The notes beneath the pieces were generated by a model. The model was not told the origin of the DNA and did no database searches. It was given only the letters and a program-made list of their open reading frames with translations. Shown one piece after another: positions 11,547 to 64,000 of a DNA stretch of 64,000 nucleotides. A program made the translations under genes and the position numbers. Each line of letters opens with the position of its first letter. The first letter of the stretch is position 1. Origin of the DNA: a virus (lineage: Duplodnaviria > Heunggongvirae > Uroviricota > Caudoviricetes); IMG/VR virus record IMGVR_UViG_2724679073_000003. The stretch is one strand, 5' to 3'.

Positions 11547-11563
11547 AATGCTCTAATAAATTT
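11547..11563 (+). promoter_or_regulatory. C1-operator-like site (Op51-like) upstream of immI
   Basis: AATGCTCTAATAAATTT vs recalled C1 operator consensus ATTGCTCTAATAAATTT. Confidence 0.6.
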
Positions 11564-11744
11564 GTATTTTTAAGTCACGAATGCTATCTTTTCGCATCAT
11601 ATTGACCTTTTAATCGTTCAGGCTTATAGTTCCGCCGTCGTAGCAAATTCTGCGACCAGGTTTGACAGCCTGAATGATTGTGCGGACAACCGCAGATTTC
11701 CGATATTGCGGTATTTTTGTGTCCGTTAAACCGCGTTACGCCCA

Positions 11745-11860
11745 AATTATGGTGGGGCGTGATGGGGAGGCTTCGGCCTGCTGGTTTCACAATCGCCAGT
11801 CTGTCAACCCTGTCACGTCCTGCCACCTGTTTGACAGCGGGTAGCAGGTTGTTAAACCTG
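11745..11860 (+). ncRNA. Candidate c4-like antisense RNA region
   Basis: Structured non-coding stretch with nested inverted repeats and a GGCTTCGGCC hairpin between the operator and icd; boundaries approximate. Confidence 0.3.
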
Positions 11861-11877
11861 ATTGTGAGGCCGTAACT

Positions 11878-12099
11878 ATGGTTAATGCCAATCCTTGCGC
11901 ACGCCAAGAATTCATCTGGCGTTTCTATTCCTGTAAAAAACACCACTATCACTTCGTTATCGCAGCAACTGAAGACGAAGCACGCTCTCAATTGCCTGAT
12001 GGCCCCTGCATTTTTACTGCCCGTTTTTCAACTAACTCGCGCAATTCACTTAGTTACTGGAACCTCCCCTTCTCTGCCGACGTTCAGGGGGGTTTATGA
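11878..12099 (+). CDS. icd: Icd-like small protein, overlaps ant start (ATGA)
   Basis: 73 aa; stop overlaps ant ATG as in P1 immI. Confidence 0.6.
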   Translation: MVNANPCARQEFIWRFYSCKKHHYHFVIAATEDEARSQLPDGPCIFTARFSTNSRNSLSYWNLPFSADVQGGL

Positions 12100-13505
12100 A
12101 AAAACCTCTCGTCACCCGTAATGAAATAGCCGAAGCGATCGCCCTGCATACAACCTGTATGCCGACACGGGAGATCCCCGGCGCAATTGCCAACTATTTC
12201 ATGATAACCAGGCGTTTTTATACCCGAACAGATAAGGCTGTGATCAACAAGCTACTGATAGCCGAGATCAGGGATTATTTGATTGAACAAGGACGTCTAC
12301 GTTACGCAACAGTGGCAGCAGAAATGAGAAAGGAGGCACATAGAATGACCAGTAATAATTTGAATGTTAAAAAACCAGCATCTGTTGCTTCAGCTACGCC
12401 ATCACCAGCTGTGAATGTTATCTCCAACACTGGAGATACAATCGACAGCCAGACGCTGTTAAAGATGGTCAATGAAGCGCGTAAGTTATGTGGGGAACCA
12501 GAGGTTCGGAACAACAAATTCATCGAAAAAATACTCGACGAATTAGAAGGTGAGGACGGTTACACAAAAAGTGCAACCGTGCCGCCAGGTGGCGGTACGC
12601 CTATGGTTGTCATAACCATGACCTACAAACAAGCCCTGCGAGTTGCCGCGCGCGAGTCAAAAGCGGTCCGCCGTTCGCTACATACCATGATTCAGGCATT
12701 GGAACCTATAAATGTTGAAAATCATCCTGATGAAATTCCCGTTCTGGAATGGCAGGGAGTACGCGTCGTGACAACCGAGACTCTTGCTAGAGGGTATGGC
12801 ACTACACCTACTCGTATTCAGCAGAACTACAATCGCAATGAAGAACGATTTGTAGAGGGTAAACACTTCTTTAAAATCAAAGGAGATGAGATAAAAAGTT
12901 TGCGACTATCTTTTAGCGAGTTGCAAATTTCCCCCAAGACCAGATCCTTAATACTCTGGACCGAACGCGGAGCGGCACGCATGTCTAAGATCGTAGACAC
13001 AGAGCAAGCGTGGGCATTCTTTGAAAAACTGGAAGACAGCTACTTCCGGCAAAAAGAACAGCAACCGGTCGCAATCCCCCAGACGCTTCCCGAAGCTCTG
13101 CGCCTGGCTGCCGAGCTGGCTGAACAAAAGCAGCTACTGGAACAGAAAACCCACCAGCTAAATCAACAGCTGGTGGCCGCAGCCCCTAAAGTCGATTTTG
13201 CCGACCGGGTATCAGCGGCTAATGGAATCCTGATCGGGAACTTTGCAAAGGTCGTTGGACTTAAGCAAAACGCCCTTTTCTCATGGTTGCGCCAGAACGG
13301 CATTCTCATGGCTTTTGGTGCGCGCAAAAACGTACCGCGCCAGCAGTACATTAACGCCGGGTATTTCACGGTGAAAGAAGTGGTGCTGGATGATGAAAAT
13401 GGCTACCAGATACGGCTGACGCCCCAATTAACGGGTAAAGGCCAGCAGTGGTTAACTCGCAAGCTACTTGATGCTGGTTTGTTAAAACCAGTAGCAATAG
13501 GTTAA
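12096..13505 (+). CDS. ant: Antirepressor Ant (ORF6N/Bro-N-like central domain plus KilAC C-terminal domain)
   Basis: 469 aa; PVLEWQGVRVVTTETLARGYG and C-terminal KilAC-type sequence. Confidence 0.8.
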   Translation: MKKPLVTRNEIAEAIALHTTCMPTREIPGAIANYFMITRRFYTRTDKAVINKLLIAEIRDYLIEQGRLRYATVAAEMRKEAHRMTSNNLNVKKPASVASATPSPAVNVISNTGDTIDSQTLLKMVNEARKLCGEPEVRNNKFIEKILDELEGEDGYTKSATVPPGGGTPMVVITMTYKQALRVAARESKAVRRSLHTMIQALEPINVENHPDEIPVLEWQGVRVVTTETLARGYGTTPTRIQQNYNRNEERFVEGKHFFKIKGDEIKSLRLSFSELQISPKTRSLILWTERGAARMSKIVDTEQAWAFFEKLEDSYFRQKEQQPVAIPQTLPEALRLAAELAEQKQLLEQKTHQLNQQLVAAAPKVDFADRVSAANGILIGNFAKVVGLKQNALFSWLRQNGILMAFGARKNVPRQQYINAGYFTVKEVVLDDENGYQIRLTPQLTGKGQQWLTRKLLDAGLLKPVAIG

Positions 13506-15641: not shown

Positions 15642-15823
15642 TACAATCGTTGCGGGTGCTTGAGGCTATCTGCTTCAGGCATTACCCGAAAAGCAGATAG
15701 AAGAAAGCCCCAGATAACATTACGCGTCCTGCAAGACGCTTAACATTAATCTGAGGCCATATCTATGCTTAGCATACGTAGATTAACCCTCTCCCCTTTT
15801 AAGGAGCAAGGAATTTTTTACTG

Positions 15824-16420
15824 CTATGCCGCATTTCCAATTATGGATTCAGCGACCAGAACAACCCCATGCTTACTTCGATCTGGGTGTTCACTCCATA
15901 TCTCGGATTCAGGAATACTTACCCCGTCATAGCAAACACGTTCGCCGTCAAACGGGTAATACTGAGCGGCATCGGTGTCAAGGATAAACACTTTTAGCTC
16001 GGAAGAGCGACGGGCGATGTGTTGCCAAAGAGCTTTTCCACCTTCGTATTGCTCATTATCACTGAGCAAAACAACACCAGCTTTTGAGGCTACGGTTTCG
16101 TAAACAAAAGTAGCTAAACCGACATCCCGGACGGTTCCATCAACCACGATACCTTCAATCTGGGCAACATCGCTATCCTCCCAGAACTTCCTTACCAGTA
16201 CGCCTTCAAGCAGCGGGCGACGTTGAAGTTCAAGAGTAGCGACAACCTTATGGCGCATATCACCATCGATAATAGAAGGCGCAGCCTCTATTACAGCTGC
16301 AAATGGGGTTTTGGAATCCCATATAACCTGGTAAAGAACACCTTGGATGGTAACTCCGTCCAGGATCGAAAATCGACGAGCGACAGTACCCGGGGAGTAC
16401 GACATTGGAATCACAGCCAT
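15824..16420 (-). CDS. Hypothetical protein
   Basis: About 198 aa from ATG with GGGGG RBS; weak C1-operator-like site upstream at 16472-16488. Confidence 0.5.
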   Translation of the reverse strand: MAVIPMSYSPGTVARRFSILDGVTIQGVLYQVIWDSKTPFAAVIEAAPSIIDGDMRHKVVATLELQRRPLLEGVLVRKFWEDSDVAQIEGIVVDGTVRDVGLATFVYETVASKAGVVLLSDNEQYEGGKALWQHIARRSSELKVFILDTDAAQYYPFDGERVCYDGVSIPESEIWSEHPDRSKHGVVLVAESIIGNAA

Positions 16421-59215: not shown

Positions 59216-60409
59216 GTGACCTGGGACGATCACAAGAAGAATTTTGCTCGCCTGGCGCGAGATGGTGGTTACACCATCGCACAGTATGCCGCCGAGTTTA
59301 ATCTTAACCCTAATACCGCACGTCGTTATCTCCGTGCCTTCAAAGAAGACACCAGGACAGCGGACAGCCGCAAGCCAAATAAGCCAGTCAGGAAGCCACT
59401 AAAAAGCATGATCATTGATCACTCTAATGATCAACATGCAGGTGATCATATTGCAGCTGAAATAGCTGAAAAACAAAGAGTTAATGCTGTTGTCAGTGCC
59501 GCAGTCGAGAACGCTAAGCGCCAAAATAAGCGCATAAATGATCGTTCTGATGATCATGACGTGATCACCCGCGCCCACCGTACCTTACGTGATCGCCTGG
59601 AACGCGACACCCTGGATGATGATGGTGAACGCTTTGAATTCGAAGCTGGCGATTACCTGATAGATAACGTTGAAGCGCGGAAGGCCGCTCGCGCTATGTT
59701 GCGTCGGTCCGGGGCCGATGTTCTGGAAACCACTCTTCTGGAAAAGTCTCTTTCTCATCTCCTTATGCTGGAGAACGCCAGGGATACGTGTATTCGCCTG
59801 GTGCAGGAAATGCACGAGCAGCAAAAAGACGATGATGAAGGTACTCCGCCTGAATACCGTATCGCGAGCATGCTAAACAGCTGTTCCGCGCAGATAAGCA
59901 GCCTGATCAACACCATTTACAGCATCCGGAATAACTATCGAAAAGAAAGCCGGGAGGCGGAAAAGCACGCTTTGTCTATGGGGCAAGCTGGCATTGTTAA
60001 GCTGGCATACGAACGAAAGCGTGAAAATAACTGGTCAGTGCTGGAAGCAGCTGAATTCATCGAGGCGCATGGCGGGAAAGTGCCGCCCCTGATGCTGGAG
60101 CAAATCAAAGCCGATCTGCGTGCTCCGAAGACCAATACCGATGATGAGGAAAGGCAAACAGCCGTCGGTGGCCCTTCTCTTGAAGATCTGGACAAAGTTG
60201 CGCGAGAACGGGCCGCCAACCGCCGCGCCGATGCCGCATTGTGGATTGAGCAGCGTAGGGAAGAAATCGCCGATATCGTTGATACAGGCGGTTATGGAGA
60301 TGTTGATACTGAAGGTGTATCAAACGAACCATGGCTGGAACAAGACCTGGACGAAGACGAGGAGGAAGACGAAGAAGTTACCCGCAAGCTATACGGGGAT
60401 GATGATTAA
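59216..60409 (+). CDS. pacA: Terminase small subunit PacA
   Basis: 397 aa; contains the pac hexamer cluster; acidic C-terminus. Confidence 0.9.
59409..59567 (+). other. pac: pac packaging site (4 + 3 TGATCA/G hexamers, Dam GATC sites)
   Basis: TGATCA at 59409, 59417, 59428, 59442; TGATCG/TGATCA at 59539, 59550, 59562, separated by about 90 bp. Confidence 0.8.
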
Positions 60410-61893
60410 TGGCCAGAAGTTGCGTAACGGATCCACGTTGGCGCGAGCTGGTGGCGCTATATCGTTATGACTGGATTGCGGCCGCTGATGTTTTGTTCGG
60501 CAAAACACCTACCTGGCAGCAGGATCTGATTATTGAGTCTGTGCAGGAACAGGGTAGCAAGACATCTGTTTCGTCTGGCCACGGTACCGGGAAATCAGAC
60601 ATGACTTCTATCATGATCATGTTGTTCATAATCATGTATCCCGGTGCCCGAGCCATTATCGTTGCGAACAAAATTCAGCAGGTAATGACCGGTATATTCA
60701 AGTACATCAAGATAAACTGGGCTACTGCCACCAGCCGTTTTCCATGGCTTGCTGATTATTTTGTTCTGACAGAAACCGCTTTCTATGAGGTTACTGGTAA
60801 AGGTGTATGGACTGTAGTACCGAAGGGCTTTCGTCTGGGAAGTGAAGAAGCTCTCGCCGGTGAACACGCAGATCATCTTCTGTATATTATCGATGAAGCC
60901 TCCGGTGTCAGTGATAGAGCTTTCGGTATCATCACCGGTGCTCTTACCGGACAGGATAACCGCATCTTATTACTGTCACAGCCTACACGCCCAAGCGGCT
61001 ATTTCTACGATACTCACCATAAACTGGCCAAGCGTCCTGGTAACCCTGATGGCGTTTATACGGCGATCACGCTTAACAGTGAGGAATCACCGCTGGTAAC
61101 GCCAGCATTTATCAAAATGAAGCTGGCGGAGTACGGCGGGCGTGATAACCCTATGTACATGATTAAGGTACGCGGACTATTCCCTAAATCACAGGATGGC
61201 TTCCTTCTTGGACGTGATGAGGTTGAACGTGCGACGCGGCGGAAAGTCAAGATTGCCAAAGGATGGGGCTGGCTTGCATGTGTGGACGTTGCTGGTGGTA
61301 CGGGACGGGATAAGTCCGTTATCAATATCATGATGGTGTCCGGCCAGAGAAATAAACGCCGTGTAATCAACTATCGAATGCTGGAATACACAGACGTTAC
61401 AGAAACGCAGCTTGCCGCCAAAATTTTCGCAGAATGTAATCCTGAGCGATTCCCAAATATCACCATAGCGATAGACGGCGATGGGCTGGGTAAAGCAACG
61501 GCGGATCTGATGTACGAGTATTATGGTATTACCGTACAGCGTATACGCTGGGGTAAAAAGATGCATAGTCGTGAAGATAAGAGCCTGTACTTTGATAAAC
61601 GTGCTTATGCCAACGTTCAAGCCGCAGAGGCCGTAAAATCTGGTCGTATGAGACTGGATAAGGGTAATGAAACTATTGAGGAAGCGTCGAAAATCCCTGT
61701 AGGGATTAACTCCGCAGGTCAATGGAAGGTGATGAGTAAGGAGGATATGAAGAAAAAACTCAACCTGCACTCACCAGACCATTGGGATACATATTGTTTC
61801 GCTATGCTGGCGGATTATGTTCCCCAGGATGAAGTGCTTAGCGTCGAAGACGAAGCGCAGGTTGATGAAGCTCTGGCATGGCTTAATGAATGA
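60409..61893 (+). CDS. pacB: Terminase large subunit PacB
   Basis: 494 aa; start overlaps pacA stop; Walker-like region [10 protein letters not shown]. Confidence 0.85.
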
Positions 61894-61895
61894 AT

Positions 61896-61912
61896 ATTTG
61901 CTCTAATAAATT
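61896..61912 (+). promoter_or_regulatory. C1-operator-like site after pacB, upstream of second immI-like module
   Basis: ATTTGCTCTAATAAATT. Confidence 0.65.
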
Positions 61913-62094
61913 GTGTTTTTTAACTGCCGATGTTACATTGAACCTGACCTCTTGCGCCTTGAGGCATTTTCGGTTTATGCTTATCAGGCACCTCATTAAA
62001 ACGGGTGCCGGGATTGGCCTCCCGCTTAAGTCTAAGGCGATACAGACGCCGCTCGCGTCTTTTTTTGTATCGGCGTACACGCACACCTCTACAA

Positions 62095-62225
62095 TGGTGG
62101 GCTGTATGGGGCTACCTTCGGGTAGGCTGGTTACCTTGGACGCCAGTAAGGCCAACTCCGTACAGTCCACCGCCAGCAAGATTGGTCTCTTCTGCGGTGG
62201 TTACATACCAACGTCTAAGGAGGCT
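62095..62225 (+). ncRNA. Candidate c4-like structured RNA (second copy)
   Basis: Nested inverted repeats GGTGGGCTGTATGG / CCGTACAGTCCACC and GGCTACC-TTCG-GGTAGGC, analogous to 11745-11860. Confidence 0.3.
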
Positions 62226-62241
62226 GCCAATATGGCTACTA

Positions 62242-62453
62242 TCCCTACCCCAACTCATCCTGAATTTATCTGGCGCTTTTACTCCTGCCAAAAACGTCAC
62301 TATCACTTCGTTATTGCACCGACAGAAGATGAGGCTCGCTCTCAGCTTCCGGATGCTCCCTGCATTTTCTCCGCCCGTTTTTCCACTGATTTGCGCAATT
62401 CTCTCAGTTACTGGTGCCTCCCTGTAAACGCTTCTGCTCAGGAGGGACTATGA
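62242..62453 (+). CDS. Icd-like small protein (paralogue)
   Basis: 70 aa; EFIWRFYSCQKRHYHFVIAPTEDEARSQLPD about 75% identical to the 11878-12099 product; AAGGAGG RBS. Confidence 0.55.
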
Positions 62454-63562
62454 GAACGTCATTAGTCACCCGTGAAGAGATGATCGAGGCAATTGAACAG
62501 CATACCGCCTGTATCAGTACCAGGGATATACCAGGCGTTATTGCCAACTACTTCATGATCACCAAACAACTTTACCGGAGAAAGGACAAAAACGCGGTTC
62601 ACCGCATTCTGCTAACCGATATCCGTGAATACCTGCTCGAACAGGGTCATCTGAATTACGCAACCGTCGCAGCCGAAGCACGCAAGGAGGCACACAGAAT
62701 GAAAGCAACTAACGTTAAATCAGAAAAAATTTATGCACCTTCAGTTCAGGAATCGGAACTGGTGGTTGTTCAGAATCAGCCGGATGAAATTCCCGTTCTG
62801 GAGTGGCAGGGGGTGCGTGTAGTGACAACCGAGACTCTTGCTAGAGGGTATGGGACCGAAACTAATAACATCAAAGTTAACTATACGCGTAATGCTGATC
62901 GCTTTGAGGAAGGTAAACATTACTTTCTACTAACTGGTTCAAAATTAAAAGAATTGAAGGACAAGGTTACTCAAAGTAACTTAGTCGCACCGCGAGCAAA
63001 GCACCTCACTCTCTGGACGGAACGCGGCGCAGCCCGCCACGCTAAAATGCTCGAAACCGATCAGGCATGGGCATTCTTTGAAAAACTGGAAGACAGCTAC
63101 TTCCGGCAAAAAGAACAGCAACCGGTTGCAATCCCCCAGACGCTTCCAGAAGCTCTGCGCCTGGCTGCCGAACTGGCTGAACAAAAGCAGCTTCTGGAAC
63201 AGAAAGCCCACCAGCTAAATCAGCAGCTGGTGGCCGCCGCTCCTAAAGTCGATTTTGCCGACCGGGTATCAGTAGCTAAAGGGATCCTGATTGGGAATTT
63301 TGCAAAGGTTGTTGGACTTAAGCAAAACGCGCTGTTTGTCTGGTTACGGGAGAACGGCATCCTGATAGCGTCCGGTGGACGTAAAAATGTGCCGTTCCAG
63401 CAGTACATCAACGCGGGGTATTTCACGGTGAAAGAAGTGGTACTGGATGATGAAGATGGCTACCAGATACGGTTGACGCCTCAATTAACGGGTAAAGGCC
63501 AGCAGTGGTTGACGCGTAAACTGCTCGATGCTGGCTTGTTAAAACCGGTGGCGGCTGAATAA
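62450..63562 (+). CDS. Antirepressor paralogue (ORF6N/Bro-N plus KilAC)
   Basis: 370 aa; collinear with Ant at 12096-13505 but lacks an internal segment of about 100 aa; ATGA overlap with upstream ORF. Confidence 0.75.
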   Translation: MRTSLVTREEMIEAIEQHTACISTRDIPGVIANYFMITKQLYRRKDKNAVHRILLTDIREYLLEQGHLNYATVAAEARKEAHRMKATNVKSEKIYAPSVQESELVVVQNQPDEIPVLEWQGVRVVTTETLARGYGTETNNIKVNYTRNADRFEEGKHYFLLTGSKLKELKDKVTQSNLVAPRAKHLTLWTERGAARHAKMLETDQAWAFFEKLEDSYFRQKEQQPVAIPQTLPEALRLAAELAEQKQLLEQKAHQLNQQLVAAAPKVDFADRVSVAKGILIGNFAKVVGLKQNALFVWLRENGILIASGGRKNVPFQQYINAGYFTVKEVVLDDEDGYQIRLTPQLTGKGQQWLTRKLLDAGLLKPVAAE

Positions 63563-63565
63563 TGG

Positions 63566-63590
63566 AAGAATGCCCGGTTGATGCCGGGCA
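63566..63590. terminator. Hairpin between convergent ant paralogue and c1
   Basis: ATGCCCGG-TTGA-TGCCGGGCAT. Confidence 0.4.
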
Positions 63591-63594
63591 TAAT

Positions 63595-64000
63595 TTATTG
63601 CGCGCTTTCGGGGTTGTCGTTTACTGGCTGCCCCTTCTTGGTTTTACGGCTGCGCGTAACTGATGCGGCTGATTTGACCTTTTTCTCTTCGCGAGTGATG
63701 GCAATTTGTTTTTTTACATTTTCAATATCTGCCAGGCGATATATTTTTGCTTGCGGCCAGCGGTCGCAGATGATCGGTTCTATGGAGTCATAAAGGCTAA
63801 ATTTTGCTTTTTCGAATTCACCGTTGATGATAATTCCATCACGGAGAGTTTCATCGCAGATAAACACGCCACACAGCGGCACATGGTAACTAACTGATTT
63901 ACCGTTATTGTAGTTAGGACTACTGGAGATGTAGTGAACGCGCAGCATTGTTTCGCTAAAGCCGTGTACGCGCATACGGAATTTTTCATCCTCCGGGTAC
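63595..64000 (-). CDS. c1: C1 repressor, C-terminal part (gene continues past window end)
   Basis: Reading frame stays open to position 64000 (...YPEDEKFRMRVHGFSETML...); ends ...NDNPESAQ, matching recalled P1 C1 C-terminus. Confidence 0.7.
   Translation of the reverse strand, partial: YPEDEKFRMRVHGFSETMLRVHYISSSPNYNNGKSVSYHVPLCGVFICDETLRDGIIINGEFEKAKFSLYDSIEPIICDRWPQAKIYRLADIENVKKQIAITREEKKVKSAASVTRSRKTKKGQPVNDNPESAQ

Follow-up and report, generated by a model that had tools for sequence, protein, structure and literature searches.

We analysed a 64,000-nucleotide stretch of a virus of the Caudoviricetes (IMG/VR record IMGVR_UViG_2724679073_000003; this whole stretch is called the window below) and found between its pacB and c1 genes a cassette that is likely to act as a second, orthogonal lock, of the kind known from the immI operon of phage P1, on an antirepressor directed against C1. 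The window represents a P1-like phage-plasmid, with pacA/pacB, c1, an immI region containing kilA, sok RNA, tRNAs, and 11 C1-operator-like sites (0.31 expected). A total of 1,701 bp is inserted between pacB and c1 (61894 to 63594); in P1 and P7 the spacing is 24 to 25 bp and the cassette is absent, as an earlier note on this DNA had supposed for P1. From the pacB side, the cassette comprises a C1-operator-like site, an IsrK-type leader RNA with an intrinsic terminator, a C4 gene, icd, ant, and a terminator-like hairpin.

In the immI operon of P1 and P7, processed C4 RNA pairs with sites a2 and b2 and blocks icd, coupling and polarity then stop production of Ant, and Ant itself inactivates C1. 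This C4-icd-Ant mechanism was reportedly described by Citron and Schuster in 1990 and by Biere et al. in 1992, and P1 C4 is said to be an RNase P substrate, from work by Hartmann et al. in 1995. The reference records for P1 and P7 (NC_005856 and AF503408) annotate the immI parts, and icd translation is noted as required for ant expression in P1. The pacB-c1 cassette resembles that operon in its putative operator and promoters, sites a1 and b1, C4, sites a2 and b2 over the icd ribosome-binding site, 73-amino-acid icd, ATGA-coupled ant, and ant2 start at codon 84. Both C4 RNAs belong to one Rfam family, and homology extends to the N-terminal module and the C-terminal ANT domain of Ant. The RNA elements of the cassette that bear on its specificity are:

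62090 to 62177, plus strand: C4 antisense RNA gene (Rfam RF01695, 75.9 bits against a threshold of 45, E = 4.7e-13, full-length model 1 to 87)
62134 to 62142, plus strand: C4 b' loop, CCUUGGACG, unpaired in the minimum free energy (MFE) fold
62149 to 62155, plus strand: C4 a', AGGCCAA, unpaired in the MFE fold
62014 to 62020, plus strand: decoy site a1, TTGGCCT, complementary to C4 a'
62030 to 62037, plus strand: decoy site b1, GTCTAAGG, complementary to C4 b'
62182 to 62188, plus strand: target a2, TTGGTCT, complementary to a', ahead of icd
62212 to 62220, plus strand: target b2, CGTCTAAGG, complementary to b', overlapping the icd Shine-Dalgarno sequence AAGGAGG (62217 to 62223)

The C4 gene scored higher than the immI C4 of the same window (11745 to 11830; 68.4 bits). 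Its MFE fold has the structure of the family, a long outer stem around two hairpins, with the second hairpin loop and the next junction unpaired, and its 3' sequence ACCGCCA is identical in 8/8 alleles. The a' and b' segments pair with a1/b1 and a2/b2 at relative positions equal to those in P1; the upstream duplicate of the target sites that characterizes immI operons is thus present, as is the coverage of the ribosome-binding site by b2 that is typical of C4 systems. The window contains the paired motif TTGGYCT-N(5-35)-GTCTAAGG at exactly two places (0.00 expected). Complementarity was restricted to the loops, in place of duplex energies between whole C4 and leader sequences, which were uninformative since long sequences are always strongly negative. 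When run on P1, the method recovered the a1, b1, a2, and b2 sites annotated in NC_005856 and was thereby validated.

Retrieval with an Icd profile from the IMG/VR sample gave 79 loci, 58 of them directly after pacB, and 78 C4 copies were examined. Five a'/b' combinations were present among the 58 pacB-c1 loci, formed from a' AAGGCCAA, AGUCUCAA, or AGUUCCAA with b' CCUUGGAC, CCUUUGAC, or CCUUUUGC. Every C4 copy (78/78) had the exact reverse complement of its a' upstream (a1) and a version with no more than one mismatch downstream (a2), and the b sites tracked b' in the same way. In an alignment of eight alleles, 100% of cells were paired between a'/b' and a2/b2, with compensatory changes in 9 of 15 pairs and none of 500 shuffles as good. 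For a1:a' and b1:b', all cells (100%) were likewise paired, both sides had changed in 9 of 15 pairs, and none of 500 shuffles equalled this. Slid controls reached 24 to 54% for a2/b2 and 24 to 56% across both covariation tests. The window's exact code was found in 29 IMG/VR contigs and one GTDB species genome, and it adjoins the 3' end of pacB in 29 of these 30 matches.

Both protein-coding genes of the cassette are also maintained. Among the pacB-c1 loci, icd is intact at 73 amino acids in 58/58, with a ratio of nonsynonymous to synonymous substitution rates (dN/dS) of ~0.03, and ant has 370 to 372 amino acids in 46 of the 53 loci where its open reading frame (ORF) is fully contained. The 43 distinct ant alleles have a median dN/dS of 0.23, consistent with purifying selection. 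These observations speak to the idea that the cassette is an inert hitch-hiking duplicate or a recombination scar, for which one could cite the non-essential intergenic site, the copies that are disrupted by an IS4-like element (NZ_CP027199) or have a shortened ant, and a tandem duplication in one contig. We consider inertness very improbable given perfect loop-target covariation over five codes, a conserved operator, intact ORFs with low dN/dS despite the many ant alleles, and the presence of the cassette in about half of P1-like plasmids. The disruption in NZ_CP027199.1 is due to an ISVsa5 transposase within the pacB-c1 cassette. At L017 (2159 to 4965) and L102 (IMGVR_UViG_2698536372_000019), the leader-icd-ant cassette stands twice in tandem after pacB, 1,566 nt apart, with the first ant cut to 340 amino acids; this is either a real duplication or an assembly artefact.

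The codes of the window's immI cassette (a = TTGACAG; b = GATTGTG) are unrelated to those of the second cassette, and no comparable cross-complementarity of either C4 to the sites of the other cassette was found at homologous positions, so the two C4 RNAs should not cross-react. In genomes where both cassettes were captured, the codes differ in 9/9. The suggestion in the earlier note of two cassettes with different specificities is supported by antisense determinants that are wholly unlike those of immI and co-vary with their targets across alleles, and together with immI the second cassette would confer dual immunity specificity. A simple duplicate of immI was rejected, as leader class, codes, and Ant central domain all differ. 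Relative to P1 and P7 themselves, the immI operon lies beside sim/kilA/repL and has a c4-a1b1 leader (RF03163), whereas the second cassette lies at pacB-c1 and has an IsrK-type leader (RF01394), unrelated a/b codes, and an Ant in which ORF6N replaces the P1 central segment. In the window's immI cassette (11547 to 13505), the a code of P1 (CUGUCAA / TTGACAG) is joined in C4 to the b code of P7 (CACAAUC / GATTGTG). All four target sites of the cassette fit this natural hybrid specificity.

The protein-coding features of the second cassette are:

62232 to 62453, plus strand: icd-like gene, 73 amino acids (NCBIfam NF033153, phage_ICD_like, 49.8 bits against a cut-off of 25)
62450 to 63562, plus strand: ant-like gene, 370 amino acids, with ORF6N (residues 116 to 200) and ANT/KilAC (residues 258 to 359) domains
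62699, plus strand: internal in-frame start of ant at ATG codon 84, with AAGGAGG at 62684 to 62690, predicting an Ant2-like product of 287 amino acids

Icd matched PHROG 1426 (E = 9e-45) in addition to the NCBIfam model, with no Pfam model matched, and Ant matched PHROG 63, "anti-repressor Ant" (E = 9e-134). The Icd-like ORF, which the earlier note gave as 70 amino acids, overlaps the start of the 370-amino-acid Ant paralogue as in an immI operon, and the icd stop and ant start share an ATGA (62450 to 62453) from which translational coupling is predicted by analogy. The internal methionine and its Shine-Dalgarno sequence coincide with the position of P1 ant2, again as in an immI operon, and two products are predicted. 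Divergence from the immI proteins is real, with the first estimate of about 75% identity resolving into 79% over 63 amino acids for Icd and, for Ant, 79% in the C-terminal 270 amino acids and 52% in the N-terminal ~100. The extra internal segment reported for the immI Ant was also seen in the alignment; its ~100 additional residues correspond, in a multiple alignment, to the central segment of P1/P7 Ant1. ORF6N is present in both window Ants and absent from P1 Ant1. At 469 amino acids, the immI Ant thus has ORF6N together with the central segment of P1. Near-identity of the second Ant to P1 Ant1 covers the C-terminal ~140 amino acids and takes in the ANT domain.

The strong constraint on icd raises a different possibility, in which Icd is the selected function and ant is secondary, with C4 and icd forming an RNA-controlled brake on growth or division that would serve, for example, in plasmid stabilization or arrest on infection. 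In its favor, the annotation of P1 Icd is that of a reversible cell-division inhibitor, the constraint on icd (dN/dS ~0.03) exceeds that on ant (~0.3), and icd is intact at all 58 loci, with ant truncated at seven. However, purifying selection also acts on ant, which most loci retain at full length, and part of the constraint on icd may be explained by its overlap with the start of ant. Since P1 ant is annotated as needing icd translation, conservation of icd and its ribosome-binding site would be expected under control of an antirepressor too. We therefore judge a primary role for Icd to be quite unlikely.

Ahead of C4 the cassette has a leader of a different class from that of P1:

61988 to 62065, plus strand: IsrK-type leader RNA (Rfam RF01394, 60.8 bits against a threshold of 50)
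62044 to 62067, plus strand: intrinsic-terminator-like hairpin and T7 run, AGACGCCGCTCGCGTCT (62044 to 62060) followed by TTTTTTT

The non-coding leader spans 338 nt (61894 to 62231), close to the roughly 330 bp of structured sequence described initially, and the segment from 61988 to 62240 folds better than 200/200 shuffles (z = -3.4). The match to the IsrK model exceeds its gathering score, and an intrinsic terminator stands at its end. This terminator is kept in all aligned alleles, including those of Shiga toxin (Stx) phage F039 and phage D6, and in the fold of the short leader RNA a1 lies inside a hairpin loop. The c4-a1b1 model (RF03163) had no match in the second cassette and matched in the immI cassette (11624 to 11676), P1, P7, and Gifsy-1; the second cassette nevertheless retains a1/b1 sites that, by their complementarity, appear functionally equivalent. 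The leader DNA aligns poorly with P1 outside C4 and icd, and from 61989 to the icd start it is 79 to 80% identical to Stx-phage leaders ahead of Rha/antirepressor genes. The earlier note was right that this leader differs from that of immI, but it is not a diverged copy of the P1 leader. Its sequence places it in an IsrK-type class common to Stx phages, D6, and Gifsy-1, here behind a P1-type operator/promoter region. Tandem Rfam matches to isrK and C4 occur in RCS47, D6, D6-like plasmids, some P1-like immI regions, Stx phage F039, and Gifsy-1.

The Gifsy-1 isrK-orf45-anrP region of Salmonella is a relative for which RNA pairing has been validated. There, the IsrK small RNA, which binds Hfq, acts in trans to activate translation of a downstream antirepressor operon by pairing with "orf45" (PMC4825925), and a terminator to which that of the window corresponds yields the short IsrK RNA. 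The validated pairs of IsrK G28 and G31 with orf45 C162 and C159 (PMC4825925) are a1:a' pairs when numbered from the IsrK 5' end (34316). In Gifsy-1 (L014, NC_010392; 34076 to 34330, minus strand), a1 occupies nt 26 to 32 and a' nt 158 to 164 from that end; the Rfam C4 match (34214 to 34131) lies inside "orf45," which starts in the C4 5' stem, and c4-a1b1 matches over the 5' half of isrK. Gifsy-1 shares with the second cassette a terminator-bearing leader of IsrK type, an element of the C4 family, and an antirepressor gene coupled by ATGA. Unlike the cassette, Gifsy-1 has neither icd nor a C1 operator, its C4 element lies under the translated "orf45," and AnrP, its antirepressor, is unrelated in size and context. 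In the published model IsrK is an activator, and PMC4825925 mentions neither "phage P1" nor "icd." A 39-amino-acid "ash family protein" ORF that the Prokaryotic Genome Annotation Pipeline places over C4 in RCS47-type alleles (2426 to 2545 in L005 and L009, where Rfam C4 is at 2422 to 2509, and 2412 to 2531 in L006) recalls "orf45." We regard it as probably spurious; the RCS47 stretch matched no NCBIfam model at the default threshold, with ORF coordinates that were possibly inexact.

Stx-converting lambdoid phages such as F039, TL-2011c, and P13374 have leaders 79 to 80% identical to that of the window, and one of these phage records, LC710660, annotates both isrK and C4. The C4 segment of the window resembles the Stx-phage type, with the same 21-nt stretch lacking in both, and RCS47 differs from it. 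Phage D6 has isrK, C4, icd, and an antirepressor. Neither the Stx phages nor D6 have the C1 operator, their codes differ from the window's, and the downstream gene in the Stx phages is a Rha-type regulator of 215 amino acids without icd. The small RNA 24B_1 of Stx phage Phi24B was dropped as a relative because the paper on it places it between lom and vb_24B_43, away from such leaders.

Some codes recur across otherwise unrelated elements. D6 (L013) and the pacB-c1 allele of AP026785 (L009) have the same code (GUCUCAA / CCUUUUGC), as do D6-like CP088384 (L007) and the pacB-c1 allele L044 (GUUCCAA / CCUUUGAC). Because the codes are identical, cross-repression between families is conceivable. 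In L006 and L010 (CP124510 and CP023732), an IsrK-type leader with code GUUCCAA / CCUUUUGC sits at the classical immI position in place of the c4-a1b1 leader, so the two leader classes appear interchangeable between both loci. A broader and tentative proposal, which we think more doubtful than not, is that the a and b loops together serve as a two-part combinatorial address code exchanged among unrelated temperate elements (P1-like, D6-like, Stx lambdoid, and Gifsy-1). C4 RNAs and IsrK-type decoy RNAs of one element would then repress or de-repress the antirepressor operon of another whose code matches, P1-like plasmids would enter this immunity network across families by way of the pacB-c1 cassette, and two orthogonal cassettes per genome would have been selected in a superinfection arms race.

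At the 5' end, the exchangeable RNA module adjoins a control region with features of P1:

61897 to 61913, plus strand: C1-operator-like site TTTGCTCTAATAAATTG, 3 nt past the pacB stop, a 17-mer with 2 mismatches to the consensus ATTGCTCTAATAAATTT
61911 to 61939, plus strand: candidate operator-overlapping promoter, TTGTGT, 17 nt, TGtTACATT, as read from the sequence
61952 to 61981, plus strand: candidate proximal promoter, TTGCGC, 18 nt, TATGCT, with a presumed RNA start near 61988

The operator-like site directly after the pacB stop was correctly recognized in the earlier note. It matches 15 of 17 consensus positions and would supply the C1 site that a P1-type immI operon has at its promoter, and its position matches Op51/Oc4 of P1 immI. 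The sequence T/C-TTGCTCTAATAAATTG is kept in all pacB-c1 alleles, ~195 to 216 nt upstream of C4, and the operator with the following ~90 nt is almost invariant among all alleles at this locus; in the Stx-phage and D6 versions of the leader the operator is absent (8 or more mismatches). Since the operator is conserved at the locus and missing from those versions, the cassette reads as a P1-specific control region fused to an exchangeable RNA module. The promoter candidates rest on alignment with mapped or stronger homologues (P1, Stx phages, D6, and Gifsy-1). The operator-overlapping candidate is positioned like P1 P2c4/P51a, whose -35 overlaps Op51, and is nearly invariant across pacB-c1 alleles. 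The -10 of the proximal candidate aligns with TATATT of the Stx F039 and D6 leaders, and Gifsy-1 has TATATT at an equal distance upstream of the isrK model start (34316).

A further explanation keeps this regulation and aims Ant away from the C1 of its own plasmid and at other elements, such as divergent C1 alleles of competing P1-like plasmids or the repressors of D6-like or lambdoid prophages in the same cell, making the module an inter-element weapon or a source of cross-talk. Consistent with this, the leader from the RNA start is 79 to 80% identical to Stx-phage leaders and of the class found in D6 and Gifsy-1, D6 or D6-like plasmids and P1-like pacB-c1 alleles have a/b codes in common, and the N terminus and central ORF6N of Ant differ from P1 Ant1. 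Against it stand the near-identity of the C-terminal ~140 amino acids to P1 Ant1, an N-terminal module and Ant2 start specific to the P1 family, a C1 operator found only in P1-family copies, which ties the module to the C1 regulon, and the location of the window's exact code at a P1-like pacB-c1 site in 29/30 matches. We consider a heterologous target unlikely, with somewhat more in its favor than a primary role for Icd.

For the lock on an anti-C1 antirepressor, which we prefer, the following sequence of events may be envisaged. Transcription would start just downstream of the C1 operator, and the majority of transcripts would end at the intrinsic terminator, giving a short IsrK-type RNA with a1 and b1. 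Read-through transcripts would contain C4, which would then be processed out. The a' and b' segments of C4, being complementary to a2 and b2, would pair with them on such transcripts, with b2 covering the icd ribosome-binding site. A block of icd translation would extend to Ant through the ATGA overlap, coupling and Rho-dependent polarity being known from P1. When made, Ant would inactivate C1 in its long and internal-start forms. The short leader RNA probably competes with a2/b2 for C4 and may thus be a decoy or activator, by analogy with IsrK of Gifsy-1. With a/b codes unrelated to those of immI, the two C4 RNAs would act as independent locks; a lysogen would silence incoming antirepressor operons of two code types, and an infecting phage would bring two antirepressor operons, both of which the resident must match.

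Several observations weigh against this scheme. The MFE fold of the read-through leader pairs a1/b1 with a'/b' in cis, and cis sequestration may compete with trans repression. A consensus promoter scan of the leader reported neither candidate promoter, and both fit the sigma-70 consensus poorly. In 7 of the 53 loci, ant is shortened while icd is intact. Finally, the target of Ant could differ, since P1 Ant1 has no ORF6N in its centre and identity to the immI Ant is only 52% across the N-terminal ~100 amino acids.

The limits of the module and its neighbors are:

60409 to 61893: pacB ORF
63570 to 63591, strand not assigned: GC-rich, terminator-like hairpin of 9 bp, ATGCCCGGTTGATGCCGGGCAT then AATTTATT
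63595 to 63597, minus strand: stop codon of c1

From the ant stop (63562) to the first base of the c1 stop codon (63595) there is a gap of 32 nt, which contains the hairpin; the earlier figure of 32 bp was exact. Elsewhere in the window, a sok antitoxin RNA (15654 to 15828; 94.7 bits) marks a hok/sok-type addiction module, four tRNA genes occupy 32995 to 33238 and 34682 to 34754, and two overlapping, oppositely oriented C1-operator-like sites occur at 32312 to 32339.

The whole interval is present in phages RCS47, JL22, and vB_EcoM-673R5 and in at least 268 PLSDB plasmids, and an uninterrupted P1-type pacB-c1 junction is present in 314 plasmids. Occupied and empty sites are thus about equally common, and the cassette appears to be in roughly half of P1-like plasmids. 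About 100 plasmids have leader alleles of the window type (≥98% identity) at the site, and the others are of the RCS47 type (~77%) or mosaics. RCS47 (FO818745), pTZ20_1P, and other P1-like plasmids share with the window the site, operator/promoter region, icd, and ant (89 to 97% DNA identity in the best matches). The leader of RCS47 is 77% identical, however, and has the code a' GUCUCAA, b' CCUUUGAC. The novelty implied at the outset is consequently weak. Reference genomes already carry the cassette, and no described function was found for it. Published or deposited annotation of RCS47-type insertions gives "ant" and hypothetical ORFs without RNA genes or function, and our literature searches found no account of the RNA genes, codes, or function of the pacB-c1 cassette beyond a one-sentence mention of an ant insertion by Venturini et al. 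in 2019 (PMC6906374).

The C4-controlled antirepressor operon type of P1 and P7 is already known, as are the Rfam families C4, c4-a1b1, and isrK. Four aspects appear, from the sequences compared, to be undescribed in the literature searched: the combinatorial a/b alleles at this site, orthogonality to immI within a genome, the fusion of a P1-specific operator to an IsrK-type leader, and the correspondence of IsrK:orf45 pairing to a1:a' pairing. The cassette links the Salmonella IsrK system with the classical P1 C4 mechanism, and the kind of mechanism is not new. P1-like phage-plasmids are common carriers of resistance genes in Escherichia and Salmonella, and their immunity circuits decide coexistence, exclusion, and induction. 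With at least five interchangeable RNA codes and a second operon in about half of these elements, the textbook view of P1/P7 heteroimmunity, one C4 code per phage, understates natural diversity, and the a/b codes may offer a testable predictor of cross-immunity that can be read from sequence.

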